Notes: generated by a model from the sequence alone, not told the origin. DNA of 64,000 nucleotides from an uncultured Bacilli bacterium (GCA_947631135.1 CANRKE010000001.1:8475-72474); one strand, 5' to 3'. Numbered from the stretch's first letter, positions 12,749 through 56,415 are shown. A program made the numbers and translations.

Positions 12749-12760
12749 TAGTATACCTCC

Positions 12761-13108: not shown

Positions 13109-13117
13109 CCTCCCTAA

Positions 13118-13390: not shown

Positions 13391-13407
13391 ACTTTACTCA
13401 TCCTTTC

Positions 13408-14241: not shown

Positions 14242-14262
14242 AATTATCCTCCTTGTCTAACA

Positions 14263-15173: not shown

Positions 15174-15192
15174 TCAAATTCCTCCTTATTTA

Positions 15193-15903: not shown

Positions 15904-15917
15904 TTTTCTTCCTCCTA

Positions 15918-16229
15918 TTATTTATTTATTATTTTTATTTCAACACCGCTTGGTAAATCCAAATGAGCTAACGCATCAATTGTTTCTTTACTTGGGTTAT
16001 TGATGTCAATTAATCTTTTGTGAGTACGCATTTCAAATTGTTCACGACTATCTTTGTCTTTGTGTACAGCACGTAATATTGTATATTTTTGAATTTCAGT
16101 TGGTAGTGGGATTGGCCCGCTAACTAAGCCACCAGTTCTTTTTACTGTTTCAACTATTTTGATAGCAGCTTTATCTAAAATTCTGTGATCATAAGCTTTT
16201 AGCTTAATTCTTACTTTTGTACTTGACAT
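15918..16229 (-). CDS. rpsJ: 30S ribosomal protein S10
   Basis: First gene of the S10 operon; homology. Confidence 0.95.
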
Positions 16230-16392
16230 TTCTTATCCTCCCCTCGCCTATATCTTGTATAGACTAGCTCCGAGCAAAAACCTGTACTTTTTCGGTAAGT
16301 AAATTATCAACTTAACCTGGAGTATCAGCAACCTTGCACATCCTCGCCGTCAAACATTAATAAGTATAACATAAAAATCCCTTAAAAATCAA
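16230..16392 (-). promoter_or_regulatory. Putative S10-operon promoter and GC-enriched structured 5' leader (~115 nt)
   Basis: On the minus strand: TTGATT-18 nt-TATACT around 16363-16392. The leader (16230-16345) is markedly GC-richer than its surroundings and has complementary segments GGCGAGGA...AGGCGAGGGGAGGA flanking the RBS. Confidence 0.3.
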
Positions 16393-16641
16393 GAAAAAAT
16401 TAAATATTTTTTTAAAAAATTTGTCTATACATAATATAATTATATTTAATTTAAAAAATTATAGTATTATTTTATTTTTAATTTATTGATTTGCTTATAT
16501 AATATATTTATTTTGTTTTAATGTATATTTTTAATATTTATACACAAAAAAGACATAATTCGACAAATTATTATTTACTAATAGATTATAATATTAGTAT
16601 AATTTAAAGGCTTCACTAAAAATTTAAGGAGGAATAGTTAT

Positions 16642-16716
16642 ATGTATATTGATATGATTGAAGATGATGATCTAGAATTTTTTAATGAGTATATTCATAG
16701 ATCAAGTATTTACTAA
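16642..16716 (+). CDS. Small ORF (24 aa, MYIDMIEDDDLEFFNEYIHRSSIY) with a strong RBS; speculative
   Basis: Perfect AAGGAGG 9 nt upstream of the ATG; followed by a hairpin and T-run (16716-16750) that also terminates the convergent gpmI. Confidence 0.2.
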   Translation: MYIDMIEDDDLEFFNEYIHRSSIY

Positions 16717-16737
16717 AAAAATATAAGTTGTGGTAGC

Positions 16738-18255
16738 TTATATTTTTTGTTTTTTATTTATAATTATATTTCCTGTCATTTCACTAGGTATTTCTATATT
16801 ATTAATACTAAATAATGATGGAATTATATCTGCAAGTATTCCATTTTTTACTTCATATATTGTACTACATACTATTAATGGAACTTTATTAGTTGTATGA
16901 GCTGTATATGGATTATCATCTTGGTCTAACATATATTCACTATTTCCATGATCAGCTGTTATTACTAACAATCCTTTTTTTTCTTGAACTTTATTATATA
17001 TTTTTCCTATGCATTTATCTACTGCTTCAACAGCCTTTATAGTTGCGTCTAACACACCCGTATGTCCTACCATATCACAGTTTGCAAAGTTTAATATTAT
17101 ATAATCATATGTTTCGTTATCCATTTCTTTAATTAATACATCTGTTATTTCATATGCACTCATCTCTGGCTTTAAATCATATGTTTTTACTTTTGGTGAA
17201 TCAATTAATATTTTCTTTTCTCCTTCGTAATCTATTGTTTTATTTCCATCAAAGAAGTATGTTACATGATTATATTTTTCTGTTTCAGCAATTCTCAATT
17301 GTTTTAATCCACACTTTTCAGCCCAACTTCCAAACGTATTTTCTAAATTTTCAAGTTTAAATGCTGGGGTACTAATTACCGTATCTCTTACTCCCATCAT
17401 AGTTACAACTTTTATATTATTAAATTTTTGAGTTTGAAATTCATTAAATTTTGGATTAGTAATAGCTGTTAATATTTGATTTGCTCTATCACTTCTAAAG
17501 TTAAAGAATATTAATCCATCTCCGTCTTTTATTATACCTTGTTTATCAAAAAGTGCAGGTAAAATAAACTCATCATAAGTTTCACTATTAAACGATGTAT
17601 CTATATATTCTAATATATTTTGATTAGTGGAATTTTTTCCATTTATTACAGTATCATAATATAATTTTATTCTATCCCATCTGTTATCTCTATCCATCGC
17701 ATAATATCTTCCTGATATAGATGCTATCTTACCTATTTGTAATTCTTCTATTTTTGAGTTTAATAGTGTGATATATTTTTTTGCTTCACTTGGTAACGTA
17801 TCTCTCCCATCTGTTATTGCATGTATGTATACATTTTTAATATTATTAATTTTACATAATTCAAGAAGAGCATATAAGTGATTTATATGTGAATGAACTC
17901 CTCCATCACTTAATAGACCCATTAAATGGATTGCTCCATTAGTTTTTTTTGCATGTTCAATTACACTTAATAATTCTTTATTACTAAAAAATTCTTTACT
18001 TTCTATTTTTTTATTAATTAAAACAAGTGGTTGATATACTATTCTTCCTGCTCCTATATTTAAATGTCCCACTTCACTATTTCCCATTTGACCATCAGGT
18101 AATCCTACATAATGACTACTTGCTTCTAAAAAAGCCATAGGAAAATTTTTCATAAACGTATCTAGGTTTGGTGTTGATGCAAGTTTTATTGCATTTCCTT
18201 TTTCTTCTTCTCTATATCCGAATCCATCTAGGATTGCTAAAACAATAGGTTTCAT
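16738..18255 (-). CDS. gpmI: 2,3-bisphosphoglycerate-independent phosphoglycerate mutase
   Basis: Typical iPGM N-terminus MKPIVLAILDGFGYR and metal-binding residues; ~505 aa. Confidence 0.9.
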   Translation of the reverse strand: MKPIVLAILDGFGYREEEKGNAIKLASTPNLDTFMKNFPMAFLEASSHYVGLPDGQMGNSEVGHLNIGAGRIVYQPLVLINKKIESKEFFSNKELLSVIEHAKKTNGAIHLMGLLSDGGVHSHINHLYALLELCKINNIKNVYIHAITDGRDTLPSEAKKYITLLNSKIEELQIGKIASISGRYYAMDRDNRWDRIKLYYDTVINGKNSTNQNILEYIDTSFNSETYDEFILPALFDKQGIIKDGDGLIFFNFRSDRANQILTAITNPKFNEFQTQKFNNIKVVTMMGVRDTVISTPAFKLENLENTFGSWAEKCGLKQLRIAETEKYNHVTYFFDGNKTIDYEGEKKILIDSPKVKTYDLKPEMSAYEITDVLIKEMDNETYDYIILNFANCDMVGHTGVLDATIKAVEAVDKCIGKIYNKVQEKKGLLVITADHGNSEYMLDQDDNPYTAHTTNKVPLIVCSTIYEVKNGILADIIPSLFSINNIEIPSEMTGNIIINKKQKI

Positions 18256-34746: not shown

Positions 34747-36006
34747 TCAATTTTTTAATGTACCAATAGATACGACATAAACACCATCATCTCTTTTATA
34801 TGAATAATTTGCTCCTGTTAATACCATTAAAAATGATGGTTCTCCACATTTTTTAGTATCTACTCTTTCTTTAAATTTAATAAGATTTTTTGCAGCTTCA
34901 TCAATATAACCTGCACCTAACTTTATTTCAATTGCTCCCCATTTGCCATTTTCTAACCTTAAAATAGCATCTACTTCAAAGTCTTTTTCATCTCTATAAA
35001 ATGATATTTCTCCACCATAACTTTGAGAATATATTTTTAAATCTCTAATACATAATGATTCAAATAAAAATCCAAAAGTCTTTAAATCATTAATTAAGTC
35101 GCTTGGACTAATATTAAGAATTGCAGTAGCTATAGATGGGTCAACAAAATATTTTTTAGGTTTAGTTCTCATTGCATATTTACTTCTTAAATTTAAATTA
35201 GTTGCTCTTACATTTTCTATTACAAATAATTTTTCTAATGTGTTCATATAATCATTTAATGTTGGTCTAGATATTTTACTATCAAACATATTATTAACAT
35301 CATCACTAATTGTAGTATTAGATACTTGAGTTGATATATTTCGCGCTAATGATCTTAATAAACTTTGCATTTTTTCTGGATTTCTTTCTATACCATCTAT
35401 ATATTTTATATCTTCATGAATTAATGATTTAACGTATTCTTTTGAAAATCTATATTTTGAATCACTCTTTACTTCTATTGAAGCAGGCCAGCCTCCTCTT
35501 ACAATTGCGCTAGCAATATCTTCTAATTTTAATTTTGATACTCCACTAATATCTTTTCCCATAAAAATATCTTCAAGTGATATTTCGCCAGTAGATTCAC
35601 CTGATTCATATAAACTCATAGTTCTCATAAGCACTCTAGAAATTCTCCCTGTTCCAGTATGCATTGTTTCACCCTCACTTGGCTTTGCAGATCCTGTTAA
35701 AATATATTGACCTTTTAATCTTGAATGATCTACATCAGTTCTAATAGCATCCCAAACAACTGGATACATTTGCCATTCATCAAACAATCTAGGTTTATCT
35801 CCATTTAAAAATAATGATGGTTTAGTATTTTTTATTTCTTCATATTCAGCTTTTCTGTCAGGATTTTGAAATTCAATTACACTCTTTGAATGAAAAGCAC
35901 CAGTTGTTGATTTACCACACCATTTGCACCCTTCTATTAATACTGCACCCATTACTTCCATAAGTTCATTTATTTCTTTATCTATAACTCTTGGAATATA
36001 TTTCAT
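34747..36006 (-). CDS. AAA+ superfamily ATPase (COG1373/DUF4143-type)
   Basis: Walker A GCKWCGKST and Walker B-like RLFDEWQ; start set at MKYIPRV. Paralog of 18260-19540. Confidence 0.6.
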   Translation of the reverse strand: MKYIPRVIDKEINELMEVMGAVLIEGCKWCGKSTTGAFHSKSVIEFQNPDRKAEYEEIKNTKPSLFLNGDKPRLFDEWQMYPVVWDAIRTDVDHSRLKGQYILTGSAKPSEGETMHTGTGRISRVLMRTMSLYESGESTGEISLEDIFMGKDISGVSKLKLEDIASAIVRGGWPASIEVKSDSKYRFSKEYVKSLIHEDIKYIDGIERNPEKMQSLLRSLARNISTQVSNTTISDDVNNMFDSKISRPTLNDYMNTLEKLFVIENVRATNLNLRSKYAMRTKPKKYFVDPSIATAILNISPSDLINDLKTFGFLFESLCIRDLKIYSQSYGGEISFYRDEKDFEVDAILRLENGKWGAIEIKLGAGYIDEAAKNLIKFKERVDTKKCGEPSFLMVLTGANYSYKRDDGVYVVSIGTLKN

Positions 36007-36232
36007 ATAACATTCTCCTCTCAAAATAATTATAACACATTTTACAAAAAAAGCAAATATCATTTTACATTTTAAGCAATTTTTGTTTTACAAAAAAAGC
36101 AAGTTATAAATATAGATTTTAAAATACTTATTATCTATATTTATAATTTATTTTTAAATTTTAAAATTTTAATATATTACTTATAATTTTTTATTTTTAT
36201 GAAAATACTAACATTAGAAATAAGGTGATATA

Positions 36233-38214: not shown

Positions 38215-39417
38215 TTATTTATCTTTTAATATTAATTCATTTAATTTATTAATTTGACTATTTAATAAAGTACATAGTTTATTAATTTTTTTATCACTTA
38301 TTTTAGTTAAATATTGATATTGATGTAATAAATTATCAAACCAATCTATTATACCATCTAACTTACTTACATCTATTCTTTTCAAATCTTTTACTACTTT
38401 TATTATTTCATCAAAAGGTTTTATTTCATAAAACATTCTTCCATTACCTGAAATATGTATTTCTTCATCATCATAATATTCAATACTTAAACTTTGTCCA
38501 TTATCAAAAATTGGAGCTATATCAATCCATTTTAAAGTATTAACATCTCTAATAATACCAAAATTATTTAAATGTCTATCTTCGTTCATAATAATAAAAT
38601 CTAAAATATACATATTCTCTACTTTTTCGCGAGCATCTTTAATATTCTGTTCTTCTAACTTTTTAATATATTCTTCATAATAATTTATATTATCATATCT
38701 TTTCATATCATTTATTATTTGATAACATGTAACAAATTCTGTATCTTTAGTTATAAAACAAGGACATTTAGATACAACTTTTTCTTTATATATATCTATT
38801 GTATATTCTACGTGATCAAATCCTAATCTTCTACATATTTCACTAGCTAATACTTCATTAAATGGTTGTAGAATTTCATTTTTATAACCACCTTTCAACA
38901 AATACCTTGTATCTTTATCAATAATCCAAGCTTTTTTTAACATTCCATCTGTAGTGTTATTAGGAGTTTTTAAAGAAGATGCTTTTGTTATTATCCCACT
39001 ATTAGTTGATAAAGATGCTTCCATAAATTCTGCATAATCAAAATCATGATCAAAAAAATTAATATCATTATAGGAAATGTTACTATCATAAGGTTTTAAC
39101 CAATATTGATCAGATAAAGATAGACCAAAAGCTTTATCTAAAAGTTCATAAGGGGCTGTTATATTTAATCTATGTAATAATAAATCTAATTTATCACGCC
39201 ATGTTGGGATTCCTCTTCCTTTAAACCATTCACTTAAATTAGTTATAAAATTTATATCATTAATATTTTTTTCTATATAAAAACTTTTTAAAATATATGG
39301 TGCATAATTAATATTTTTTATTTCATATATTTTATCAAAAAACTTTGAAGTTTCATTATATTCGGCAATTAAAATTTCTACATTTTTGTTCATAAGTATA
39401 CATTTCATAAAAAACAC
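38215..39417 (-). CDS. HipA-like serine/threonine kinase family protein
   Basis: MNEDRHLNNFGII...WIDIAPIFDNGQSL parallels the HipA catalytic loop (D-x-HxKNFS) and the downstream L-APAYDL motif. Confidence 0.55.
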   Translation of the reverse strand: MFFMKCILMNKNVEILIAEYNETSKFFDKIYEIKNINYAPYILKSFYIEKNINDINFITNLSEWFKGRGIPTWRDKLDLLLHRLNITAPYELLDKAFGLSLSDQYWLKPYDSNISYNDINFFDHDFDYAEFMEASLSTNSGIITKASSLKTPNNTTDGMLKKAWIIDKDTRYLLKGGYKNEILQPFNEVLASEICRRLGFDHVEYTIDIYKEKVVSKCPCFITKDTEFVTCYQIINDMKRYDNINYYEEYIKKLEEQNIKDAREKVENMYILDFIIMNEDRHLNNFGIIRDVNTLKWIDIAPIFDNGQSLSIEYYDDEEIHISGNGRMFYEIKPFDEIIKVVKDLKRIDVSKLDGIIDWFDNLLHQYQYLTKISDKKINKLCTLLNSQINKLNELILKDK

Positions 39418-39552: not shown

Positions 39553-41238
39553 TTATCTTTTAAAATTAATAACTATTTGATAAAGATTACCTAAATCTTG
39601 TTCATTTATTTCAATTCCATAACCATTTCCTTGTAAATTCATTATTGTATTTCTTATAACAGCAACTGCTCCTGTAATATCTTGTTGCATTATCATTGAT
39701 TGTGATGATGGATTATCATTTACTTGAGGTTCTTGCATTTGTTGAGGTTGTTGTTGATTATACATGTTCATATCTGCATTGTTTTGTTGCATATTTTGTT
39801 GAGGTTGCATATACATTTGTTGATTGTTCATCATATTATTTTGATTGATATTTTGATCATAATTTGGTTGTTGATAATTATTCATAGGATTATTTTGCAT
39901 CATATTATTATCCATTTGATTATTCATAGGGTTTTGTTGAACTGTTTGATTCATATTATTCATAACAGGTTGTTGCATTTGTTGTTGTTCCATATTATTG
40001 CCTTGTTGCATTCCATAATTATTCATACCATTATTTGGCATATTTTGTTGCATTTGTTGAGGTTGCATATTACCCATATTTTGTGCTTGCATATTTTGTT
40101 GCTGCATATCATTCATATTATTATCTTGCATTTGTGGGTTTTCATCAGGTAATGAACTTTCTGTAAAATTACTTATATCTTGATTATTTTGTTCACTTTC
40201 TGCTTCTTGTGCTTCTTCGGGAGCAGGTATATTTGGCATTTGCATATCATTATTTTGTTCCATATTTTGGTTATTCATATCTACTTGATTGTTAGTATTC
40301 ATTTGTTGATCTTGCACAAATTGTGTTGGAGTTGGAGAAAATGAAGAATCAAAATTCATATTAGCTGCTTGATTATCATAGTTAAAAAATCTTGATGGTT
40401 CTTGTACTTGTGCATTATTAACTACTTGTTCATTTATATATGCTCCATTTTGTTGACTACTATTTATATTTATTTGGTCGTAATCTGGTATATTTGGTAT
40501 ACCACTATTAGCAGTAAAATTATCTATTACTGGACTATTATTTTCATTCATATTATCACCCTTTTTATTATCATCATCATCTGAAAAATCTAATATTTCT
40601 TCAGTTTGTTCCAAATTACTATTATTATCAATTAAATCTTTTATATATTTATCAGTTTCTCTTACTGTCATTCTTTTTTCTATGATTTTATTTAATGTAT
40701 CATTTTGCATATCATGATCTTTTAATCTCAATAAACTTCTTGCATGTCTTTCACTAATTTTATTATCTAAAACAGCTTGTTGTGCTTCATTTGATAGATT
40801 TAATAATCTAAGTTTATTTGATATTGTAGATTGTCCCTTACCTATTTTTTTAGCAAGTTCTTCTTGTTTGATTTGTCCTAATCCTAATATTTGTTGGTAA
40901 GACTTTGCTTCTTCTATAGCAGTTAAATCTCTTCTTTGTACATTTTCAATCAAAGCAATTTCTGCTGATGAAGAATCATCTAATTCCATAACAATTGCAG
41001 GAACGGACATCAAACCTATCATACATGCTGCTTTATATCTCCTTTCACCTGCAATTATTTCAAACTTGTCTCCCAACTTTCTTAAAACTAATGGTTGTAT
41101 TATACCATATTGTCTAATCGATTCGGCAAGCTCATTTAATAATTCTGGGTCAAAGTTTTTTCTAGGTTGAAATCTGTTCGGTATTATGTTGTTAACTGAA
41201 ACATTTTCTATTTTCATTTTACTATAGTCAATGTTCAT
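39553..41238 (-). CDS. ParB/Spo0J/Noc-family protein with a long Q/N/M-rich low-complexity insert
   Basis: ParB N-terminal domain (IIPNRFQPRKNFDPELLNELAESIRQYGIIQPLVLRK...IIAGERRYKAA) and HTH, then ~280 aa dominated by Q, N and M, then a short C-terminal domain. Follows rsmG, as noc/spo0J do in Firmicutes. Confidence 0.75.
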   Translation of the reverse strand: MNIDYSKMKIENVSVNNIIPNRFQPRKNFDPELLNELAESIRQYGIIQPLVLRKLGDKFEIIAGERRYKAACMIGLMSVPAIVMELDDSSSAEIALIENVQRRDLTAIEEAKSYQQILGLGQIKQEELAKKIGKGQSTISNKLRLLNLSNEAQQAVLDNKISERHARSLLRLKDHDMQNDTLNKIIEKRMTVRETDKYIKDLIDNNSNLEQTEEILDFSDDDDNKKGDNMNENNSPVIDNFTANSGIPNIPDYDQININSSQQNGAYINEQVVNNAQVQEPSRFFNYDNQAANMNFDSSFSPTPTQFVQDQQMNTNNQVDMNNQNMEQNNDMQMPNIPAPEEAQEAESEQNNQDISNFTESSLPDENPQMQDNNMNDMQQQNMQAQNMGNMQPQQMQQNMPNNGMNNYGMQQGNNMEQQQMQQPVMNNMNQTVQQNPMNNQMDNNMMQNNPMNNYQQPNYDQNINQNNMMNNQQMYMQPQQNMQQNNADMNMYNQQQPQQMQEPQVNDNPSSQSMIMQQDITGAVAVIRNTIMNLQGNGYGIEINEQDLGNLYQIVINFKR

Positions 41239-41289
41239 AAGGACCCCTCCCTATTCGATTATTATAAGTATATCCTATTTTTCAACTAA

Positions 41290-41994
41290 TTACAATGGAT
41301 TTTTTTTAATTTTATCAAATTTTCTTGGATATTTACTATTAGTATTTTTAATTTTTTTAATTTTAACTATTGATCTATAACTATTTTCTATTGGTAAATA
41401 AAAGTCAATTATTTCTTCTAGTTTACAGTCTAATAGATTAATTGCATTTTTACTATTTTCTATTTCTTCTTTAACATTTCCTTTAAGTGCGATAAAATAT
41501 CCATCTAACTTTACCATATTAATAGATAATTCTAAAAGAATATTTAATTTAGCAACAGCACGTGATGTTACAACATCATATTCATTAATATGTTTTATTG
41601 AAAATTCTTCAATTCTATCATGTATAGTTTCAACATTATTAATATTTATTTTATTTATTACTATATTTAAAAAATCTATTCTTTTTCTTAATGAATCAAC
41701 TAATGTTACTTTTATATCAGGAAAAAATATAGCAATTACAAGTCCTGGAAAACCTGCTCCTGTACCTATATCACAAATAGTATTTACTTTATTTAAATTA
41801 ATTGCTTTTACAATAGTTAAACTATCATAAAAATGTTTTAAATATACTTCTTTTTCTACAGTTATACCTGTTAAATTCATAACTTTATTATAATCAATTA
41901 ACAAATTATAATAAATATTTAATTTATCTAATTCTTCTTCTGTTACATCGATATTCAACTTTTCTAATTCTAAAATAAATTCATCTCTATTCAT
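41290..41994 (-). CDS. rsmG: 16S rRNA (guanine527-N7)-methyltransferase
   Basis: SAM-binding DIGTGAGFPG; synteny with mnmG. Confidence 0.9.
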   Translation of the reverse strand: MNRDEFILELEKLNIDVTEEELDKLNIYYNLLIDYNKVMNLTGITVEKEVYLKHFYDSLTIVKAINLNKVNTICDIGTGAGFPGLVIAIFFPDIKVTLVDSLRKRIDFLNIVINKININNVETIHDRIEEFSIKHINEYDVVTSRAVAKLNILLELSINMVKLDGYFIALKGNVKEEIENSKNAINLLDCKLEEIIDFYLPIENSYRSIVKIKKIKNTNSKYPRKFDKIKKNPL

Positions 41995-47454: not shown

Positions 47455-48378
47455 CTAATAATATATAGTTATTGTATGATGAGTTTTACTTTTTTTATTT
47501 TTCTTTCCCATACACCATATTAAATTATCTAATTCAACAGAATTTATAATTATATTTTTTTCTTTTAGTTTTTCTTTTATTATTTCAATTACATATAACA
47601 TGTTAGCTCTAATTTCTATTTCCATTTCACTATCATGTAATAATTCTACTTCATTATCGACAATATCTTCTAATGCATCATTGTATACTAAAATACCATA
47701 ATCTCTGAATGTTCTTGGTATTCCATAATCAGCACACCCACTTAAGTTATTTACATTTTTTAAATTATTATTAATTGTTTCTGATAAATAATATAAATCA
47801 TTTGTAAGTAAAATTGCACGTTTATTAAAGTGTATTATTTTGTTTTTATAAAAAGACTTATCGTCAAAACTTTTAAAGTTATTTGTAATATAATTTAATA
47901 AATCTATATCTTTTTTTATAGAAAATATTTCATTATAAAAATTCTTATTATCATAAATATAATTTATTGTTTCAATAAAATTATTATATCTCTCATTTAA
48001 TAATGGAATTTTTCCTTCAACAGAATTAAAAATATTTTCAAATTGTTTTTTATTAATTGAATGTAAATATTCTATATTTAAAAATTTTGAATTACTTTCT
48101 ACTTTTTTTATTATTGAATAAAATAAAGCATTTGATCCACTCATAATTTCATGATTATATTCTATTTTCCATTTTGGTTTTTTCCAAAAGCAAAAATTCA
48201 TAGATTCTATTATAAAAGCTAGTAATATCCATTCTTTCTCACTTAATTTAATATTTAAATCTTTTGACCAATGTTTATAATTAATTTCTTTTAAGTTATT
48301 TATAAAGTCATTAATCTTATTATTATTGATTTTAACATATTTACTATTTTTTACTACATATTCAAATTCATCTTTCAT
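47455..48378 (-). CDS. Queuosine-salvage family protein (DUF2419/Qng1-like nucleotide N-glycosylase)
   Basis: CADYGIPRTFRDYGILVYN...SEMEIEIRANMLYVIE parallels the Qng1 signature ADYRVPQLLRALGALRYS...EEQEIRAASILAVE. N-terminal MNFCFWKK parallels LNFSFWSD. Confidence 0.6.
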   Translation of the reverse strand: MKDEFEYVVKNSKYVKINNNKINDFINNLKEINYKHWSKDLNIKLSEKEWILLAFIIESMNFCFWKKPKWKIEYNHEIMSGSNALFYSIIKKVESNSKFLNIEYLHSINKKQFENIFNSVEGKIPLLNERYNNFIETINYIYDNKNFYNEIFSIKKDIDLLNYITNNFKSFDDKSFYKNKIIHFNKRAILLTNDLYYLSETINNNLKNVNNLSGCADYGIPRTFRDYGILVYNDALEDIVDNEVELLHDSEMEIEIRANMLYVIEIIKEKLKEKNIIINSVELDNLIWCMGKKNKKSKTHHTITIYY

Positions 48379-48381
48379 ATA

Positions 48382-48936
48382 CTATTCCTTTCTTAATAAT
48401 AATTTTTTACTTTTTATAATATTGTTTATTTGTAACATTGTATTGTCAATAGAATTATTATTATCAACAATATAAATTTTATCATATTTTTTATATAATT
48501 GTAAATAAACATTGTTTTCATAATTATAAAAATCTTCATCAAAAATAAAATTATTTCTTTTTTGTAATCTTTCTTTAATTTTATATTTGCTTACTTTTAA
48601 ATATATAGTGTGTGGATGAAATATATTTATAGATAATATTTCATCGGCTGTTTCTTGTATTGTTTTTTTTAGTTGATAATTTAACCTAATTATAGTTGTA
48701 TAAAAGAATCTATCAAATATATAATTACCATTATTACATTCATATATATTGGCTTCATGTCCTATTATATAAATTTTTTTTTGTAACTCTGCATTACAAG
48801 TTCTGGCAAATTCTATATATTTTCTATACCAATCAGGGATAGATGTTCTAGGAATAATATTATATTCTTTTGATATATGTTTAATTAATGTTGATTTGCC
48901 AGATCCATTACTTCCTTCTAAAACTAATATTGACAT
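48382..48936 (-). CDS. P-loop nucleoside/nucleotide kinase (deoxynucleoside kinase / thymidylate kinase-like)
   Basis: Walker A VLEGSNGSGKSTL and a DRF(F)Y motif resembling the TMPK/dNK DR(Y/H) motif; 184 aa. Confidence 0.6.
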   Translation of the reverse strand: MSILVLEGSNGSGKSTLIKHISKEYNIIPRTSIPDWYRKYIEFARTCNAELQKKIYIIGHEANIYECNNGNYIFDRFFYTTIIRLNYQLKKTIQETADEILSINIFHPHTIYLKVSKYKIKERLQKRNNFIFDEDFYNYENNVYLQLYKKYDKIYIVDNNNSIDNTMLQINNIIKSKKLLLRKE

Positions 48937-50945
48937 TATATTTTCCTCATTACTAATACATGTTTTTGTGAATTATTTCTTGTTTTAATTTTAATATCAT
49001 GAGAATTTCCTATATCATAATCCCAAAAATTCCTATTTATGATTTCTAGTATATCATTTAATTCAAAAAACATTTGATTAAAATCATATTCTTTAATTAT
49101 TTGATTTTTATAATACAACTTATAAACTGTTTGTTCTTTCGCACTTTTAATATCATAATGACGTTGAATAACTAATTTATATTTTTCATCGACATATAAT
49201 TCTTTGTAAAAATTTGTATCCACACTTTCTCTCCATATTTTATTAAAACAGTCAAATACTATTATTCCGTTTTTTCTTAATATTAAATATATTTTATTTA
49301 ACATTTTACTTAATTCTTCTTTATTGCTATAGCAGTTATATAGGCTATATGCATAATCAAAAAGATAATTAAAATTGTGCATCAAAAAATCATCTTTTAT
49401 ATAAATAAAATCTTTTTCATTACCAATAAATTGATAAGATTCATAATCTATACCTACTATGTCATTATATCCTGCCTTTTTTAATTGATTTGCTATTCTT
49501 CCATATCCACACATGATGTCTAGTATTTTACCATTTTTATTTGAAAAGATTTTTGAAAGAAAATCTATTTCTTTTATAGTATAATTTGACATTGCTTTCG
49601 ATGTGTAATTGTGATATGTACCTAATTCATTAAAAGATTTTCTATCTTTGATTATATTAACGTTCATTTTTTCATTATCTAATTGATCAGCAAATAAACT
49701 ATTATTTATATTGTTTTGATTTAATATTATTTTAATTTCTTGCTTTTGAATCATACTTAAGAAATTAGTGCATATTATAATATAATTTTTAAATAATTCA
49801 TAGTTTAATTCATTTATATTTCTTTTTAAATCATTAATAATTGCAATTATTATACTTGTTTTACTGTAGTTTTCTATATTTGGTAAGTATAAATCATTTG
49901 TACCATAAACCACAATTTTATTAAGTATATTTTTTTCATTGTATTTTTGATTATTTGTATTCGATAATAGAATATATCCAAAAAATTTTCCTAATGCATC
50001 AATTAAATATTGTCTATCATATTCATTATTTTGCATTTTTAAAATATATTCTTTAAATATCATACTTTGCTTTTTATTATTGATAAAATTAAATGGATTA
50101 CTTTTGTAGGTAGTATTAAATTCTGTAGAAAGTATGATTGGAAGTTGAGATTTAACTGTTTTTTTTCTGCCATATATGATACCAAATTGATTAAATTCGT
50201 TTATTAGTTTTTCTTTTAAATATGATGGAAAATATATATTATTAGCAAATAAGTTCAAATAATTATTGGAATCTATATTATTTTTTTTAAAAAAATTATG
50301 AATATTAATTATAAATTCTTTCCTAAGTTTATTAAATTCAAGTCTATCATAATTTATATTAAAACCTTTTAATATTGAATCAGCTAATATTCCTAGATAT
50401 ATATTGTCATTTTTTTCAATATGTGAAAAATCTAGATGAATATAATGATCTTTACCATCTTCTGTTATAAACGATGGCGAAATAAAGTTAACTGTAATTC
50501 TTGAATTGTCAGTTCCGTAAGCAAAAAATAAGCTAGTATTTCTATCATGTGATATTTTTTTAATTATTATTTCTTTATTTAATTCACAAATATTTTTAAT
50601 AAGTTTTTTAGATACTAGATTTATAGTGCTTTTTATACTATTATATATACCATTTAGTCTTATAATATCTATTTCCCCAGCAAATAATAATTTTAGATCC
50701 AAGTCAAGATATTTTTTTTCAAAATTAAAGTTAGTTGTTTTTAAAAATTCTATTATTTTTTCTATATCTTTTTGATTTTCATATATAATCATGAAATCAA
50801 AATCTCCAATTTTATTTTTATTATTATACTTTATAGAATCGTAAGCAAATCCTCCACCTGTTACAAATGATGCATTGATATTATTATCTTTTAACAATAA
50901 ATTAATTTCTTTACAAAAATTACTTCCTACATTTCTGTAATTCAT
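48936..50945 (-). CDS. Two-domain protein: N-terminal polymerase-beta-type nucleotidyltransferase-like domain fused to a C-terminal class I SAM-dependent methyltransferase
   Basis: N-terminus VTGGGFAYDSIKYNNKNKIGDFDFMII (hG[GS]-x(n)-DhDh). C-terminus ILDIMCGYGR (motif I), VGIDYES (post-I acidic), LRKNGIIVFD (motif III). Confidence 0.55.
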   Translation of the reverse strand: MNYRNVGSNFCKEINLLLKDNNINASFVTGGGFAYDSIKYNNKNKIGDFDFMIIYENQKDIEKIIEFLKTTNFNFEKKYLDLDLKLLFAGEIDIIRLNGIYNSIKSTINLVSKKLIKNICELNKEIIIKKISHDRNTSLFFAYGTDNSRITVNFISPSFITEDGKDHYIHLDFSHIEKNDNIYLGILADSILKGFNINYDRLEFNKLRKEFIINIHNFFKKNNIDSNNYLNLFANNIYFPSYLKEKLINEFNQFGIIYGRKKTVKSQLPIILSTEFNTTYKSNPFNFINNKKQSMIFKEYILKMQNNEYDRQYLIDALGKFFGYILLSNTNNQKYNEKNILNKIVVYGTNDLYLPNIENYSKTSIIIAIINDLKRNINELNYELFKNYIIICTNFLSMIQKQEIKIILNQNNINNSLFADQLDNEKMNVNIIKDRKSFNELGTYHNYTSKAMSNYTIKEIDFLSKIFSNKNGKILDIMCGYGRIANQLKKAGYNDIVGIDYESYQFIGNEKDFIYIKDDFLMHNFNYLFDYAYSLYNCYSNKEELSKMLNKIYLILRKNGIIVFDCFNKIWRESVDTNFYKELYVDEKYKLVIQRHYDIKSAKEQTVYKLYYKNQIIKEYDFNQMFFELNDILEIINRNFWDYDIGNSHDIKIKTRNNSQKHVLVMRKI

Positions 50946-50958
50946 ATTTTTTCCTCCT

Positions 50959-51798
50959 TTATTTTCTTAAATACATAGTACATACGTTATTTTTTGTCAT
51001 TACTTTACTCCTAGAATACATAGTTTCCATTGGTAAATAAACACCATTTTCTTGTTTTTTAATATAATCGGAAATAATATTATATATGGTGTATAGTTTA
51101 TCATTTCTTTTTTTTATTTCTTTATTGGACCAATTCATTTTCTTATAAAACTCAATATTATTTTTATAAAAATTATAATAATTTTTGTCTTTATTTAAAT
51201 TATCAGAAATATATCCAATAGTATATTTTGAATCATTATAAATATCAGATAAAAATATTATTTCTGTTTCATCAAAATTTTTGGATGCTTTTTCTTTAAA
51301 TTTTTTTTCATGAGTATTCAATTCTTTTTTCCAATTAGGATTTAGGTCATAATTAGTATTTTCTAAAAATATATTAGCTAAAGTTATTTTAAAGTTTACT
51401 GGTATCTTTTCTTGTTGAAATAAATTTTTTATTTCTTTTAGTATATTTAATCGTTTAGAATTATTTTCACCTATATAATCTTTATATCCAGTATTCGTAT
51501 ATCCTGGACAAAAAATTGCATTAAAGTTGATAATAGAATTATTAATTATATAATATATAAAAGATGTTAAATCTTTTTTAGTATTATACTTATAATCAAA
51601 GTAACAATTTAATTTATTAATTATGTTCCATAAATAATTTATGTTGTTTATATCTACATTTATTAATTGTTTTTCAATAGAGGCATCACCGTTTTTTATT
51701 AATCCAGTAATTATAGATTTAATTATTTTTGTGTTTTCAGCAGTATGTACTATATTTAATTTATTAAATATATAATTATAATCAAACATTTTAATCAC
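50959..51798 (-). CDS. Hypothetical protein (279 aa), operon member
   Basis: Intact ORF tightly packed between the flanking genes; no family recognised. Confidence 0.5.
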   Translation of the reverse strand: MIKMFDYNYIFNKLNIVHTAENTKIIKSIITGLIKNGDASIEKQLINVDINNINYLWNIINKLNCYFDYKYNTKKDLTSFIYYIINNSIINFNAIFCPGYTNTGYKDYIGENNSKRLNILKEIKNLFQQEKIPVNFKITLANIFLENTNYDLNPNWKKELNTHEKKFKEKASKNFDETEIIFLSDIYNDSKYTIGYISDNLNKDKNYYNFYKNNIEFYKKMNWSNKEIKKRNDKLYTIYNIISDYIKKQENGVYLPMETMYSRSKVMTKNNVCTMYLRK

Positions 51799-51865
51799 AA
51801 ATTCCTTTCATTTTATTCAAAATATACATAATTATAAAAAGCATTTATTTTTTCAACATAATTTT

Positions 51866-52669
51866 CTACTTTAGTCTTTTATCTAACTTTTTTTCATTAT
51901 TAATGATACCATGTGCATATACATTATGTTCATGAATTGACTCATAATTAATAAGTTCTGCTTCTATTTTATTATTATATTTTTCAGCAACAGCTAAAAG
52001 TAAATCTCTTATTAAATCTTCTGAAAATTTTGGATTTTCATAAGCTAATTCTGTAATATATTTTTCATCTGTTCTTTTAACTGTACTATATACATTAGAA
52101 CTAAATGACTTTTCCATTATATTGATAATTTCTTCTAAATTAATTTTTTCATAATTCTCGTGTAATATTATTGTTGCCTTACATTTTTGATTATGTGCCC
52201 CGTATTTCGATATGTCTTTGGAACAAGGACATAACATTGTTCCTATAATAGAAATTGATAAACTTTTTTTATTAATATCATTTATTTTGGAATTGTTTAT
52301 TTTCAAATTAACAGTAAAATAAGAATTTTTCTTTGAAATTGGTGAAATTCTTTTTAAAATAATATCAAAATCCATAGTTAATGACATATTGTTAGTTTCC
52401 GTTCTTTTTATTGTAGTATTTATAATTTCATTAATATCTTCAAGTGATATAATTTTATCACACAAATAGTCATTTAATACTTCAATAATTCTGCTTAAAT
52501 GTGCTCCACGAGAATTTTTTTCAAGTGAAACGTTACTAGATATATTACAGATTGAATGATACAATTTATTATTTATAGATAGTGTAATAGGTAATTTGTA
52601 ATCACAAATTCCAATATTACTTATAAAAATATTTCTATCATCTTTTTCATTTTGCAAATCTTTAAGCAT
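51866..52669 (-). CDS. GTP cyclohydrolase FolE2/MptA family (GTP cyclohydrolase I type 2)
   Basis: Matches three FolE2 signatures: RGAHLSR (G-x-H-M/L-SR), MLCPCSKDISKYGAHNQK (CPCSKEIS...GAHNQR) and C-terminal ESIHEHNVYA (ESIH-x-H-x-A-x-A). Confidence 0.7.
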   Translation of the reverse strand: MLKDLQNEKDDRNIFISNIGICDYKLPITLSINNKLYHSICNISSNVSLEKNSRGAHLSRIIEVLNDYLCDKIISLEDINEIINTTIKRTETNNMSLTMDFDIILKRISPISKKNSYFTVNLKINNSKINDINKKSLSISIIGTMLCPCSKDISKYGAHNQKCKATIILHENYEKINLEEIINIMEKSFSSNVYSTVKRTDEKYITELAYENPKFSEDLIRDLLLAVAEKYNNKIEAELINYESIHEHNVYAHGIINNEKKLDKRLK

Positions 52670-53519
52670 TTTTTAACACCTCTTCTATTTTTAATATATT
52701 CTCCTTATTTTTTAAAGCATCTATCCATTTTAAACTATTGTTCTCTATATAATCTCTATTTAAAATTTTCTTTTCATATAAATATACATCTTTCAACAAA
52801 TTATATATAATACAATATTTAAATAATAAATGTATATTGTTTTTTTCTTCTTTTTCAAGTTTAATATTATTATTAAAGTAATTTGAAATAAATACTTTTA
52901 TATTATCAATATCATAATTTTTATTTTTTATAAAAAACCACATAATTACTCTTATTATATCAATAAGTCTATTTCCAATATAAACGTTACCAAAATCAAT
53001 TAGAAATATTTTATTATTATTAATTATAATATTTTCCTTTTTTATATCTGAATGAACGATACATTTTGAAAGAGCATCAAGATTTATGTTTTGAATTTCT
53101 TTAAATATTTTATTTATAAAATTTAAATCTTTAGATAAATATTTAGATCTTATTGCTACACTATAATATTGGTTTAATTTGTTTAGTGATTCTTCATTTT
53201 CTTTATGTTTTTTTATTTTTTCATTAAGAGGTATAGAGTGAAGTTTTTTCAATAATAATGCCAAATTTTTAAAAAATGATTTATCAAAAGTATTAGGATT
53301 ATTTCCATATATATATTTTAATATCATTACATTTTTTGAATTAAAAATAAATTTTGAAATTAATTTAGGACTCTCAAAATCATATTTTTTAAGATATTTT
53401 AAAATCTTAATTTCAAAGCTATTATCAATTTCACTCATTCTAATTATATATTTTTGTTTTCTTATTGTAAAAATGTATACATCATTTATGTTATTATTTT
53501 TAATTTTTTCTAAATTCAC
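52662..53519 (-). CDS. Protein-kinase-like fold phosphotransferase (APH/choline kinase/CotS family small-molecule kinase)
   Basis: Brenner motif VHSDIKKEN (HxDxxxxN) and LIDFGN (DFG-like). 8-nt overlap with the downstream FolE2 gene. Confidence 0.6.
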   Translation of the reverse strand: MNLEKIKNNNINDVYIFTIRKQKYIIRMSEIDNSFEIKILKYLKKYDFESPKLISKFIFNSKNVMILKYIYGNNPNTFDKSFFKNLALLLKKLHSIPLNEKIKKHKENEESLNKLNQYYSVAIRSKYLSKDLNFINKIFKEIQNINLDALSKCIVHSDIKKENIIINNNKIFLIDFGNVYIGNRLIDIIRVIMWFFIKNKNYDIDNIKVFISNYFNNNIKLEKEEKNNIHLLFKYCIIYNLLKDVYLYEKKILNRDYIENNSLKWIDALKNKENILKIEEVLKNA

Positions 53520-53575
53520 ATATATTCCCCCTTTTTCTAAAACTTTAGTATATTATTCCAAGAAATCGCTAATTA

Positions 53576-53604
53576 TTCTATTACTTTTACAATTAAATGT
53601 CAAT
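53576..53604 (-). promoter_or_regulatory. Candidate promoter of the six-gene island operon
   Basis: Minus strand TTGACA-17 nt-TAGAAT, ~50 nt upstream of the first gene's AGGGGG RBS. Confidence 0.35.
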
Positions 53605-53708
53605 AGAATACATATTTTTTATAAATTTTTCAGGATAAATTCATGAAATAAATTTATTTGTTATAAATAATTACTAAAAACGTACATAGAAAAACATCTA
53701 TAAAATAT

Positions 53709-53737
53709 TTGCTTTTATGTTACAAATATTGTATAAT
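53709..53737 (+). promoter_or_regulatory. Candidate promoter for the 192-aa gene
   Basis: TTGCTT-17 nt-TATAAT. Confidence 0.35.
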
Positions 53738-53898
53738 AAGTGCTGAAAGGAAAAATTTGTTAGAAAAATAATATTTTAATTAAAAATAAATCGTTCAGTA
53801 AATGATTTATTTAAGATTAGTGTGATGTAATTGATAAAATATAAATTTCATTTTTTAATAATTTTAATATAGTAAAAGTATTAGGAGGTTATAATTTT

Positions 53899-54477
53899 AT
53901 GAAAAAAATAGATTTAGATGAATTCGATGATTCAAATATGTTTGCTAATGATACTATTGAAAATTTAAAAAAAGATTGTAAGAACGGTTTTCAATTATTA
54001 AAAATAATAATCGATGGAAAGCCAAAAAATATTAATCCTCTAACAGAAATACCAGAACCTCAAATGAGATTGTTTGGCTTTTCTGATGCTTTTAATAGTG
54101 TATATTTTGAAACTGAAGAAGAATTAATTGAATGGGCAAAAGAACATAATAGAGATTCTGATAGTATACGCGTAATGGATTATTTAGGAACAGTTGCTGG
54201 TCGTAGTGATGTAATTAGAGTAAAATATCCAGGTGGAAAAGATTTATTATTTACTCATTGTGATGAAGATGGATATGGAATATACAATTATAACAGAAGC
54301 AATTATAGAGGCGAATTTATATGGGAATATAGTTACGGAAGCATTAGTGATATGTACAAAGAATTTAGAGATAGAGGTATTGTGTTTGAAAATGATATCT
54401 ATGCAAAAATTGAAGAAAGTAAAAAAGAATTATTTAAAAAGATTAAAGAAATAAATAAAAAACATTTTAACAAATAA
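53899..54477 (+). CDS. Hypothetical protein (192 aa) adjacent to oriC
   Basis: Intact ORF with GGAGG RBS; no recognisable family. Confidence 0.5.
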   Translation: MKKIDLDEFDDSNMFANDTIENLKKDCKNGFQLLKIIIDGKPKNINPLTEIPEPQMRLFGFSDAFNSVYFETEEELIEWAKEHNRDSDSIRVMDYLGTVAGRSDVIRVKYPGGKDLLFTHCDEDGYGIYNYNRSNYRGEFIWEYSYGSISDMYKEFRDRGIVFENDIYAKIEESKKELFKKIKEINKKHFNK

Positions 54478-54619
54478 TAATTCTTAAATTAATTATAAGA
54501 TGCTTAACTTAAAAAGTATCTTTTTTATTTGATTAATATTTAATTTATAAAATAGTTAATATTACTTTTCCCAGGAAATAAATTTTACTATATGGGGAAA
54601 TAATAATATTTTCCATAAA

Positions 54620-54825
54620 AAATATTTCCCACAGGTATGTGGAAAAAATTGTGGAAAACTAACCCTTATAAAATATGGATAAACTTTAGTTTTCCACAGT
54701 TATCCACAGGCATGTGCAAAAAAAGTTAACAAGTGTGTAAACTTTTTCCACAGGATTGTGCATAACTTATATTTCCCAGTAAAAAATAAGATTTTTTCCT
54801 GTTGAAAACTTTGTGGAAAAAAATT
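54620..54825. promoter_or_regulatory. oriC DnaA-box cluster upstream of dnaA
   Basis: TTATCCACA at 54700-54708. TTTTCCACA variants on either strand at 54638-54646, 54650-54658, 54690-54698, 54744-54752 and 54812-54820. TTTCCCACA at 54625-54633. Confidence 0.7.
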
Positions 54826-54910: not shown

Positions 54911-56269
54911 ATGAATGTTAATAGTATTTGGAATAATTTTTTGGAGAACATTAAATTACAAATTACAAATCTATCTTATGAAACTTGGTTTAAGAATACT
55001 AAGTTATTAGAAATTAAAGATGGTGTAGCTAAGATAGTTGTTGAAACTTATGTACATAAAAAACATTTACTTGAAAACTATACTGATTTAATAATTGATA
55101 CTTTAAATCAAGTAACTGGTACAAACTTTTATATTGAATTTATATTGGAAGATGAACTAAATAATGAGAATGCAGAAATAGATGTAGATTTAATTGGTGT
55201 ACCTAATAGTAAGAATAGAATAGAATCAAATCTAAATTCCAAATATGATTTTGATTCATTCATTGTTGGTGAAAGTAATAGATTTGCACATGCTGCTGCT
55301 TTATCTGTTGCGGAAAATCCTGGTAAGATGTATAATCCATTATTTATATATGGAAAGAGTGGTTTAGGTAAAACTCATTTAATGCATGCGATTGGAAATT
55401 ATATCGATGCTAATTCTTCAAAAACTGTTTTATATGTTACTAGTGATCAATTTATTAATGATTTTGTTGAAATTAATAAAAAAGATAAAAATGATAATAA
55501 TTATGATTATGTTGAATATTTTAAAAATAAATATAGAAATATAGATGTATTAATTATTGATGATATACAATTTTTAGGAAGTGCAGCTCAAACTCAACAA
55601 GAATTTTTCCACACTTTTAATAAATTGTATGACGATAATAAACAGATTATAATATCATCAGATAGATCACCAGACGATTTAAAAATTCTAGAAGATAGAT
55701 TAAGAACAAGATTTGGTTGGGGATTATCAGTTAATATTTTTCCACCTGATTTTGAACTAAGAAAAAATATATTAGTTAAAAAAATATCTGCTCAGGGAGT
55801 TAATAGTAAAATACCAAATGACGTTATTGAATATATTGCGAATAATTGTCAATCAGATGTTAGACAATTAGAGGGAGCTATAACAAGATTATTTGCATAT
55901 GCAACTATGATGAACGGAAGTGATATAACTTTAGAACTTGCAATAGAAGCTTTAAAAGATCATCTTCATAAATCAATAGGAGAAAAAAATAGTGTTAATA
56001 GAATACAAAGAATAGTATCTGATTATTATCATGTTACTGTTGAAGATTTAAAAAGTAAGAAAAGAAGTACACAAATTGCTTTTCCAAGACAAATAGCAAT
56101 GTATTTAACAAGAGTTCTTACTAATGAGTCTTTTCCTAAAATAGGAATTGAGTTTGGTGGAAGAGATCATTCAACAGTTATGCACTCAATAGATAAAATA
56201 GAAAAAGAAATAAATAAAAATAGACAATTAAAAAATATTGTTGATAAACTAAAAGAACAAGCAAGATAA
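54911..56269 (+). CDS. dnaA: Chromosomal replication initiator protein DnaA
   Basis: AAA+ Walker A GKSGLGKTHL; C-terminal DNA-binding domain (GGRDHSTVMHS). Confidence 0.95.
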   Translation: MNVNSIWNNFLENIKLQITNLSYETWFKNTKLLEIKDGVAKIVVETYVHKKHLLENYTDLIIDTLNQVTGTNFYIEFILEDELNNENAEIDVDLIGVPNSKNRIESNLNSKYDFDSFIVGESNRFAHAAALSVAENPGKMYNPLFIYGKSGLGKTHLMHAIGNYIDANSSKTVLYVTSDQFINDFVEINKKDKNDNNYDYVEYFKNKYRNIDVLIIDDIQFLGSAAQTQQEFFHTFNKLYDDNKQIIISSDRSPDDLKILEDRLRTRFGWGLSVNIFPPDFELRKNILVKKISAQGVNSKIPNDVIEYIANNCQSDVRQLEGAITRLFAYATMMNGSDITLELAIEALKDHLHKSIGEKNSVNRIQRIVSDYYHVTVEDLKSKKRSTQIAFPRQIAMYLTRVLTNESFPKIGIEFGGRDHSTVMHSIDKIEKEINKNRQLKNIVDKLKEQAR

Positions 56270-56278
56270 AAACATATT

Positions 56279-56415
56279 TGTGGAAAAACTAAACTTGTCC
56301 ACATAATTATCCACAACTAAAATTTTTGTTTTTTTCCTAATATATAAGAAAAAAATACAGTTTTCCACAAGTTTCCACAGTAATAATAACAATAATAATA
56401 AATATAATTATATTC
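56279..56415. promoter_or_regulatory. oriC part 2: DnaA boxes plus AT-rich DNA-unwinding element between dnaA and dnaN
   Basis: Boxes TGTGGAAAA (56279-56287), TTGTCCACA (56295-56303), TTATCCACA (56307-56315), TTTTCCACA (56361-56369), GTTTCCACA (56371-56379). Then TAATAATAACAATAATAATAAATATAATTATATT. Confidence 0.7.

Follow-up and report, generated by a model that had tools for sequence, protein, structure and literature searches.

What kind of protein is encoded by a ParB/Noc-like gene of about twice the usual length, and what is the additional length for? We addressed this question for an open reading frame (ORF) at 39553..41238, minus strand, in a 64,000-nt stretch of DNA from an uncultured Bacilli bacterium (GCA_947631135.1 CANRKE010000001.1:8475-72474), referred to here as the window. 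The source lineage is an uncultured member of the gut Bacilli with ~25% GC. In the ORF listing of this 64-kb window the noc-like coding sequence is intact and specifies 561 amino acids (aa) followed by a stop codon; NCBI protein P0001 is identical to it and sits on a 72.6-kb contig. An earlier reading made from the DNA without database searches (hereafter, the sequence-only reading) had described a ParB/Noc homolog, about twice the normal length, carrying a prion-like insert. The length stands, as canonical Bacillaceae Noc proteins have 279-301 aa. We conclude that the query protein is very probably a Noc ortholog in which the tether between the DNA-binding domain (DBD) and the C-terminal domain (CTD) has been expanded into a long disordered segment and from which the N-terminal helix is missing.

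The assignment to Noc is carried by the folded parts of the protein, which map to the window as follows.

40606..41238, minus strand: CTPase domain plus DBD of the type that recognizes the Noc-binding site (NBS), residues 1-211 (Pfam; AlphaFold2 (AF2) predicted local distance difference test (pLDDT) >90 over most of it)
41161-41181, minus strand: Box I, PNRFQPR (invariant across 75 homologs)
41029-41049, minus strand: Box II, GERRYKA (invariant across 75 homologs)
40924-40947, minus strand: Box III, ENVQRRDL (invariant across 75 homologs)
40738..40842, minus strand: recognition region GKGQSTISNKLRLLNL...ISERHAR, with Q136, K142, N147 and R164 (aligned to Noc structures 7ol9 and 7nfu)
39556..39687, minus strand: C-terminal dimerisation domain, residues 518-561, a helix and then a beta-hairpin (AF2 pLDDT 82-96)

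The Pfam matches are ParB_N (residues 9-101) and HTH_ParB (residues 104-202). The sole deviation among the CTP-binding boxes is a Lys in place of the third Arg of GERRxR in Box II; in B. subtilis Noc, this third Arg was the only Box II position whose alanine mutant still gave Noc foci (PMC4331003). Four residues set the preference for parS or NBS, ParB carrying R-T-A-G and Noc Q-K-K-R (Jalal et al., 2020; PMC7383237); of these, Q173 and R201 change the specificity, and either K179 or K184 suffices as the permissive residue (PMC7383237). Residues Q136, K142, N147 and R164 of the query occupy positions 173, 179, 184 and 201 in that numbering, giving the pattern Q-K-N-R, with N at position 184 where Noc has K and with the permissive K179 kept.

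Profile and structure comparisons gave the same identity. The nucleoid_noc model TIGR04285 matched the query at 275.6 bits over residues 9-212 (model positions 1-205 of 255), and deleting the linker in silico raised the score by 21 bits, to 296.5, and extended the match to model positions 1-254 of 255. Residues 507-561 alone aligned to TIGR04285 positions 205-254 (E = 0.012), and AF2 pLDDT was 92-96 for residues 521-560. The best sequence matches in the PDB were the Noc structures 7ng0 and 7nfu (197 bits each) and 7ol9 (182 bits), with Spo0J/ParB next at 168 and 162 bits. Foldseek with the AF2 model returned apo-Noc 7nfu as best match (template modelling score (TM) 0.77), and the predicted DBD compared with the Noc-NBS complex 6y93 at TM 0.91-0.94. 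Together with the Q-K-N-R residues and the NBS sites of relatives described below, these best matches bear out the Noc-type identity suggested from the DNA; the NCBI names for relatives are the generic 'ParB/RepB/Spo0J family partition protein'. [quoted passage not shown]

The extra length lies between the DBD and the CTD, in three nested features.

39688..40605, minus strand: disordered, net-acidic linker between the DBD and the CTD, residues 212-517 (AF2 pLDDT <50 throughout)
39703..40350, minus strand: fast-evolving low-complexity tract, residues 297-512 (low ortholog identity, composition)
39709-40146, minus strand: Q/N/M core, residues 365-510 (Q 28.8%, N 27.4%, M 18.5%, P 7.5%, 0 K/R)

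In canonical Noc the tether at this place is 0-10 aa long and 42% K/R. The tract of the query is an expansion of that tether and not an insertion into a domain, so that the 'insert' of the sequence-only reading becomes a tether with conserved short motifs followed by a fast-evolving low-complexity part. Residues 213-510 (298 aa) consist of 23.5% N, 20.1% Q, 11.4% M, 7.4% D and 7.0% P, with 37 D/E against 3 K/R. The 58 other ORFs of the window, our background for composition, have 14.3% K+R (binomial P = 2e-16 for the K/R depletion of the linker), 10.7% K, 2.2% Q and 2.1% M. Charge is unevenly spread: the core holds 10 D/E in 146 residues, and the proximal residues 213-364 hold 27 D/E and are acidic rather than prion-like. 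Residues 418-497 form the densest 80-aa stretch, with 48 Q+N, where other window proteins reach at most 21. The Michelitsch-Weissman criterion for such regions is reportedly at least 30 Q/N within 80 consecutive residues; the query exceeds it (48/80) and is also disordered, with a core low in charged and in hydrophobic residues. An almost exclusive Q/N/M/P/D content had been claimed for residues ~230-510; this is accurate for the core at 365-510 and inaccurate for 213-364, which are more mixed and contain conserved motifs. The claim of prion-like composition itself was confirmed, by composition and AF2, as a disordered Q/N/M-rich tract. Judged from composition, prion or condensate behavior is plausible.

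The second departure from canonical Noc, which for a Noc is the most unusual and which the sequence-only reading had not mentioned, is at the N-terminus. In B. subtilis Noc an N-terminal amphipathic helix is required for function, and DNA is tethered to the membrane by the CTP-closed clamp; the helix was present in every Noc homologue examined by Adams et al. The canonical N-terminus reads MKH(P/S)FSRFFG(L/I)GEKE. In the query, PNxxQPR begins at residue 20, compared with residues 40-54 in 120 canonical Nocs, residue 4 is aligned with residue 24 of B. subtilis Noc, and the N-terminal hydrophobic moment is 0.10, against 0.43 for the membrane helix of B. subtilis Noc. Neither the amphipathic membrane-targeting helix (~residues 1-10) nor the spacer after it was found in the query, which lacks ~25-30 N-terminal residues relative to canonical Noc. 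A misplaced start codon does not account for this, as judged from the upstream sequence, which contains the following element.

41244..41251, minus strand: Shine-Dalgarno sequence GGGAGGGG, strong, 5 nt 5' of the ATG (upstream sequence read)

The stop-to-stop frame of the ORF starts at 41250, only 4 codons beyond the ATG. The position of the Shine-Dalgarno sequence and this short upstream frame fix the start codon and leave no room for an N-terminal extension. A promoter and terminator scan gave nothing better than shuffled sequence did.

Is this architecture peculiar to one gene? Using only the folded residues 1-212 as query against 1.84 billion 50%-identity representatives, we analyzed the best 150 matches, which are 55-74% identical, 245-982 aa long and all carry SERH(A)R, a motif of the Noc type. 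Four of them, the shortest at 245-263 aa, are truncated fragments, leaving 146 complete representatives. Every one of these has a linker of at least 60 aa (146/146; median 226, maximum 730), and every linker is net acidic (146/146; D+E 19.5%, K+R 5.4%). In 141 of the 150 representatives PNxxQPR lies at residue 15-20, so that nearly all are also without the N-terminal helix. The two changes, loss of the N-terminal helix and replacement of a short basic tether by a long acidic disordered one, are thus paired in the clade, whose clusters at 50% identity number 146 or more and come mainly from gut metagenomes of humans and animals. Q/N-rich linkers (≥30 per 80 residues) occur in only 11/146 representatives and linkers with at least 10% Met in none (0/146), and the query linker has 11.4% Met overall and 18.5% in its core. 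Because a long acidic disordered linker is universal among the clade representatives, length is not peculiar to the query gene; the sequence-only picture of a peculiar tract therefore falls for length and survives for the Q/N/M flavor, which is local. Since Q/N richness is found in so few members, the core function of the linker does not need prion-like composition. When the literature was searched for Noc or ParB proteins whose linkers are prion-like or long and disordered, the only relevant finding was the condensates of B. subtilis Noc; no description of a helix-less, long-linker Noc came up in these searches, and databases annotate such proteins as generic ParB partition proteins.

Comparison with the nearest orthologs separates the conserved parts of the protein from those that turn over. 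Identity to P0002 and P0003 was 87% and 82% over the N-terminal domain plus DBD, 78% and 66% over the proximal, motif-bearing residues 206-296, 28% and 32% over the low-complexity tract at 297-512 (shuffled 25-27%), and 82% and 84% over the CTD. Despite this turnover of sequence, Q/N/M richness is common to the three nearest orthologs. Tandem linker repeats differ by species and include NMNNQFNQYQPQDP in eight copies, PPQQGGYNPYGQNYQQT in six, and units of 24-38 aa that contain FNPF. P0113 and P0121, members of one 90%-identity cluster, are 554-aa and 503-aa forms that lie two 24-residue linker repeats apart; either the copy number varies between strains or repeats collapsed when the reads were assembled. 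In the window, the DNA of the tract contains only short degenerate repeats with periods of 9 and 15 and no clean tandem array, and its codons are nearly all the A/T-rich AAT and CAA, plus ATG. In the nearest orthologs the linkers are collinear and 255-379 aa long, and each ortholog was recovered identically from at least two independent samples/assemblers. The sequence-only reading had pointed to relatives as the place to look for the tract and had left room for orthologs without it and for a pseudogenised copy here; long linkers were found in the orthologs, identical long relatives occur in independent assemblies, and the frame is intact. A 142-aa L/I/H-rich ORF at 39724-40152 on the plus strand is an antisense shadow of the low-complexity tract and not a gene.

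Three short motifs stand out in the proximal part of the linker.

40585..40602, minus strand: M1, EEILDF, residues 213-218 (conserved in the nearest subclade)
40462..40500, minus strand: M2, IPNIPDYDQININ, residues 247-259 (conserved in the nearest subclade)
40345..40398, minus strand: M3, PSRFFNYDNQAANMNFDS, residues 281-298 (iterative profile search; top amphipathic segment of the linker)

A regular expression for M1 matched 22/146 representatives, compared with 1.6 in shuffled linkers, and the M2 core IPx[FY][DN] matched 17/146, compared with 2.7; an iterative profile search with M2 found 21/269 linkers and 0 decoys. M3 is more widespread, with the family consensus (G/P)N(K/R)FF(N/P)xL(E/D)DEx(A/V)NMN and significant matches to the M3-seeded iterative profile in 111/269 family linkers and 0/269 shuffled decoys. 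M3 has a hydrophobic moment of 0.50; that of the membrane helix in B. subtilis Noc is 0.43. We also considered M3 as the N-terminal membrane helix relocated into the linker and set this aside as no more than a weak lead, as only an (S/N)(R/K)FF core is common to both. M2 (IPxF) might mimic the FtsZ C-terminal peptide and M1 might be an SSB-tail-like motif; we adopt neither reading.

If the protein is Noc, its binding sites would be expected among the sequences of its relatives or in the window itself. We scanned for the NBS consensus ATTTCCCGGGAAAT in 12 close GTDB-species loci and in the contigs of three closer relatives, ~350 kb in all. Eight exact sites and three with one mismatch were present, where chance predicts ~5e-4 exact sites over the first 278 kb, and the exact matches mostly continue into the 16-bp sequence TATTTCCCGGGAAATA. 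The relatives bearing these sites encode Noc-like proteins with the same Q...K...N...R recognition residues. In the two nearest relatives with contigs a site lies ~300 bp 5' of dnaA, an exact NBS in L018 and a one-mismatch site in L016. No parS with two or fewer mismatches was found in ~290 kb of origin-proximal DNA of relatives.

The window spans oriC, with DnaA-box clusters flanking dnaA (54911-56269). These dense clusters lie at 54638-54820 and 56239-56369, and the window holds 41 boxes with at most one mismatch against 24 expected; their placement on both sides of dnaA marks a bipartite oriC. One candidate binding site lies in this region.

54566..54579, no strand assigned: candidate degenerate NBS TTTTCCCAGGAAAT, two mismatches (332 bp 5' of dnaA, on the distal margin of the DnaA-box cluster)

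On its own the TTTTCCCAGGAAAT candidate is not significant, and it sits among DnaA-box-like TTTCCCACAG repeats. When aligned with L016 and L018, the NBS of these relatives falls within ~40 columns of the window's candidate, out of register. A strong NBS in the window was sought and not found: the only hits were TTTTCCCAGGAAAT (54566) and TTTCCCAGTAAA (54772), both within the DnaA-box cluster and both like the TTTCCCACAG repeats. A parS-like site, TGTTGCACTTGAAACA, lies at 6171-6186 inside an ORF at 6096-7373, with one mismatch that breaks the central CG; 0.11 such sites were expected. In S. aureus, whose genome offers a ParA-less context, Noc acts origin-proximally and restrains DnaA-dependent initiation (PMC5540599). 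Given this precedent and the NBS next to oriC in relatives, a role in replication control is possible.

The gene neighborhood fits a noc gene with no partition partners close by.

41290..41994, minus strand: rsmG (gidB), directly upstream of the noc-like gene (Pfam GidB, 172 bits)

On the minus strand of the window the order is rnpA-yidC-jag-mnmE-mnmG-rsmG-noc, and mnmE-mnmG-rsmG-noc is kept in all related loci. In B. subtilis, noc also directly follows rsmG. The 64-kb window has neither a Walker A motif of the ParA type nor a ParA homolog nor a further ORF of the ParB family, and rsmG-noc-PBP1 with no ParAB within ±10 kb recurs in all 12 close GTDB species and in three closer metagenomic relatives. 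The ancestral Firmicutes ORI cluster contained parA, parB and noc (PMC8136486). Of the 'Noc-only arrangement' suggested by the sequence-only reading, the placement of noc directly after rsmG without a ParA nearby is therefore correct, but the adjacency to rsmG is not unusual; the missing downstream soj-spo0J is. An outgroup Mycoplasmatales metagenome-assembled genome (MAG; L013) retains the classical rsmG-noc-parA-parB order, and its ParB has an N-terminal KKGLGRGL motif. This true ParB (L013b) starts MATKKKGLGRGLDLL, and no ParA-interaction motif of the GLGRGL type is present in the query. The Noc-like protein of L013 (8310-9155, 281 aa), after rsmG and beside normal parA-parB, has kept LTERHGR, and its GERR and ENxQR boxes are gone, which suggests a CTPase-dead Noc.

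How might such a protein work? In the account we lean towards, if by a modest degree, the query is a noc ortholog that combines a clamp, an acidic tether brush, M3 as effector and clustering through the Q/N/M tract. A dimer would nucleate at NBS sites, bind CTP and close its N-terminal gate, and the closed dimer would slide off as a DNA-entrapping clamp, as B. subtilis Noc does. Two tethers of ~300 residues would make the chamber that holds DNA between the DBD and the CTD far larger; their acidity would drive them away from the DNA, so that they project from the nucleoid as a DNA-repelled polymer brush. The (K/R)FFxxLEDE segment of M3 could stand in for the lost N-terminal helix as the effector contact, touching either the membrane or a partner in division or replication. 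The uncharged Q/N/M tract would add weak multivalent self-association, by which loaded clamps would cluster in condensate-like Noc-DNA assemblies. Such self-association is plausible since canonical Noc already condenses, B. subtilis Noc forming condensates (PMC9606368); that the Q/N/M tract promotes assembly is nonetheless, in our estimate, doubtful. The low-complexity tract itself would have arisen, and would turn over, by in-frame slippage and repeat expansion, with selection acting on composition (no K/R, disorder) and not on sequence.

Several observations weigh against this account. The window has no convincing NBS, and no CCCGGG occurs in its 64 kb. The TIGR04285 scores of both the native (275.6 bits) and the linker-deleted query (296.5 bits) fall below the curated NCBIfam cutoff of 315 bits. 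Q/N/M richness is rare in the family (11/146). AF2 predicted neither folding of M1-M3 nor docking onto the folded domains (pLDDT ~40). Acidic residues directly follow M3, which is unfavorable for binding to an anionic membrane, and the likeness of M3 to the canonical membrane helix is marginal, the M3 profile scoring a median of 1.8 bits against 80 canonical N-termini, a value matched by 2.6% of shuffles.

The main rival account treats the Q/N/M tract as tolerated junk, a near-neutral product of slippage in an AT-rich genome within a tether that needs only to be flexible and non-basic; the tract would give the protein no particular property, be it condensation, prion behavior or another, and the query would work like the rest of the clade. 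We regard this as possible, if rather unlikely. It is favored by the near absence of conservation between nearest orthologs (28-32% identity against 25-27% for shuffled sequence), by the wide range of family linkers (60-730 aa, P/E/S/T-rich or N-rich elsewhere), by species-specific tandem peptide repeats whose copy number varies inside one 90% cluster, and by the DNA itself, with its weak period-9 and period-15 repeats and mostly A/T-rich codons (AAT, CAA, plus ATG). However, the composition is far from mutational expectation (Q 20% vs 2.2%, M 11% vs 2.1%), and lysine, which is AT-favored and makes up 10.7% of the background, is nearly missing from the linker. All complete family members keep a long linker and none has gone back to 0-10 aa, which indicates selection on linker length, and Q/N/M richness persists in the three nearest orthologs despite turnover. 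At the other extreme, the tract could be a bona fide prion by which Noc would alternate between two states, one soluble and active, the other a self-propagating amyloid, giving heritable variation in the control of division or replication. The best 80-residue stretch with its 48 Q/N and the disordered 146-residue core with 0 K/R and 10 D/E would suit this, and a precedent is the Q/N-rich prion-forming domain reported for Clostridium botulinum Rho, a Firmicutes regulator (PMC4703818). Most family members are without Q/N richness, though, which excludes a prion switch as the role conserved in the family. In the query, moreover, Pro makes up 7.5% of the tract and a strongly acidic segment borders it. 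Proline and acidic flanks disfavor amyloid, and we consider a prion very improbable.

Two further accounts concern the identity and the integrity of the gene. The protein might be a ParB and not a Noc: the sole ParB-family member of its cell, acting at parS-like sites near oriC and loading SMC without ParA, as in streptococci. No ParA or second ParB occurs in the window or related loci, the site at 6171-6186 is a parS-like sequence with one mismatch, relatives are named ParB by NCBI, and ParA-less arrangements are known from S. aureus and Streptococcaceae. Against this, the query has Q, K and R at 173, 179 and 201 and not the parS-type R173/G201; the ~290 kb of origin-proximal DNA of relatives contain perfect NBS sites but no parS, even with two mismatches allowed; the N-terminal ParA-interaction motif is missing; and the gene occupies the noc slot after rsmG. 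On the specificity residues, the NBS sites of relatives and the absent ParA-interaction peptide we rejected a ParB identity, whose probability we put at very little. Slimmer still is the chance that the gene is a decaying pseudogene or an artefact of assembly. Short-read MAG assemblies are prone to errors in low-complexity DNA, only one contig is known to carry the exact protein, and the 48-residue difference in a relative could be repeat collapse; but an open frame of 561 codons re-enters a CTD that is 82-84% identical to orthologs, the tract lacks a clean DNA tandem array, and the trait is universal in the clade. We rejected this explanation on the intact frame, the absence of a clean array, the collinear linkers of orthologs and the identical long relatives from independent assemblies.

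Returning to the query as a re-architected Noc, comparison with characterized systems shows what has been kept and what has changed. With Noc of B. subtilis and Geobacillus thermoleovorans (7nfu, 7ng0, 7ol9, 6y93) it shares the boxes, the recognition Q/K/R, the CTD and the position after rsmG, and its relatives have the identical 14/16-bp NBS. It differs from them in lacking the helix MKH(P/S)FSRFFG, in having ~300 acidic disordered residues with motifs in place of a 0-10-aa basic tether, and in the Lys of GERRxR, the N at 184, the sub-cutoff TIGR04285 score and the absence of soj-spo0J downstream. S. aureus Noc is a parallel in that NBS or NBS-like sites lie ~300 bp upstream of dnaA in the query's nearest relatives; unlike the query, it has canonical length and the N-terminal helix, and S. 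aureus has a separate ParB. Chromosomal ParB/Spo0J shares the fold and the predicted CTP-clamp architecture of N-terminal domain, DBD, linker and CTD (best ParB matches in the PDB, 162-168 bits), whereas the query has Noc-type residues and lacks both a ParA-activating peptide and a neighboring parA, and its relatives are without parS.

Among unrelated proteins, an evolutionary parallel is the FtsZ C-terminal linker, a disordered tether that runs from a folded domain to a conserved terminal element and is highly variable in length and sequence, with length and flexibility reportedly mattering rather than sequence (Buske and Levin, 2013). The pattern is analogous and the protein unrelated; the query linker joins two folded clamp domains and has internal motifs. 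The prion domain of C. botulinum Rho (PMC4703818) is similar in its Q/N-dominated, uncharged disorder within a nucleic-acid-binding regulator of a Firmicute, but has no sequence relationship to the query tract, which is internal, neither terminal nor part of an N-terminal insertion, and far longer (~150-215 aa). Yeast Pbp1/ataxin-2 has a Met-rich, redox-sensitive low-complexity domain. The core of the query, at 18.5% Met, recalls that domain, without sequence relationship.

The surroundings of the gene showed several other features. A HipA_C-like kinase ORF (38215-39417, minus strand, 400 aa, Pfam 32 bits) lies between noc and a gene for a class-A penicillin-binding protein (PBP). In relatives L002, L009, L011, L012, L014 and L016 the PBP gene directly follows noc, so the HipA_C-like ORF of the window looks like a lineage-specific insertion. 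An ATPase ORF with AAA_14 and DUF4143 (34747-36063, minus strand) adjoins the PBP gene; ATPases of this kind are often linked with mobile or defence regions. On the contig of the closest relative, L014, a type II-A CRISPR-Cas system (Cas9, Cas1, Cas2, Csn2; 11768-17597) directly follows the PBP gene. Between rnpA/rpmH and dnaA the window holds an island of ~7 kb (47455-54477) at a place where rpmH adjoins dnaA in L016 and L018. It encodes Q_salvage, a thymidylate-kinase-like protein, a 669-aa methyltransferase, a 279-aa unknown protein, a FolE2 GTP cyclohydrolase, an APH-family kinase and a 192-aa unknown protein, and may be a 7-deazapurine/queuosine-related module inserted at oriC. Genes for SpoIIR lie near the origin cluster in relatives (L016, 19062-19595; L018, 19679-20203), indicating that the lineage keeps sporulation genes.

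The clade-wide re-architecture of Noc is the more important finding, and the query is its extreme Q/N/M-rich example, which also makes it the best candidate for tests of prion-like or condensate behavior. A clade of Noc proteins without the N-terminal helix challenges the model of Noc as a membrane-tethering clamp. It amounts to a natural experiment on whether membrane tethering is essential to nucleoid occlusion, on the role of the DBD-CTD tether that forms the 'DNA-storing chamber' of ParB-family clamps, and on whether disordered regions can tune ParB/Noc condensation. In the boldest version, which we think quite unlikely, a lineage of gut Bacilli would have rebuilt nucleoid occlusion without direct lipid binding, relying on the tether and its (K/R)FFxxLEDE effector, with the Q/N/M-rich tract, gained in addition by the query's species, driving a reversible and possibly oxidation-sensitive condensation of NBS-loaded clamps near oriC. 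If true, condensation of this kind would, in an anaerobe, make division and/or DnaA-dependent initiation responsive to redox or nutrient state.

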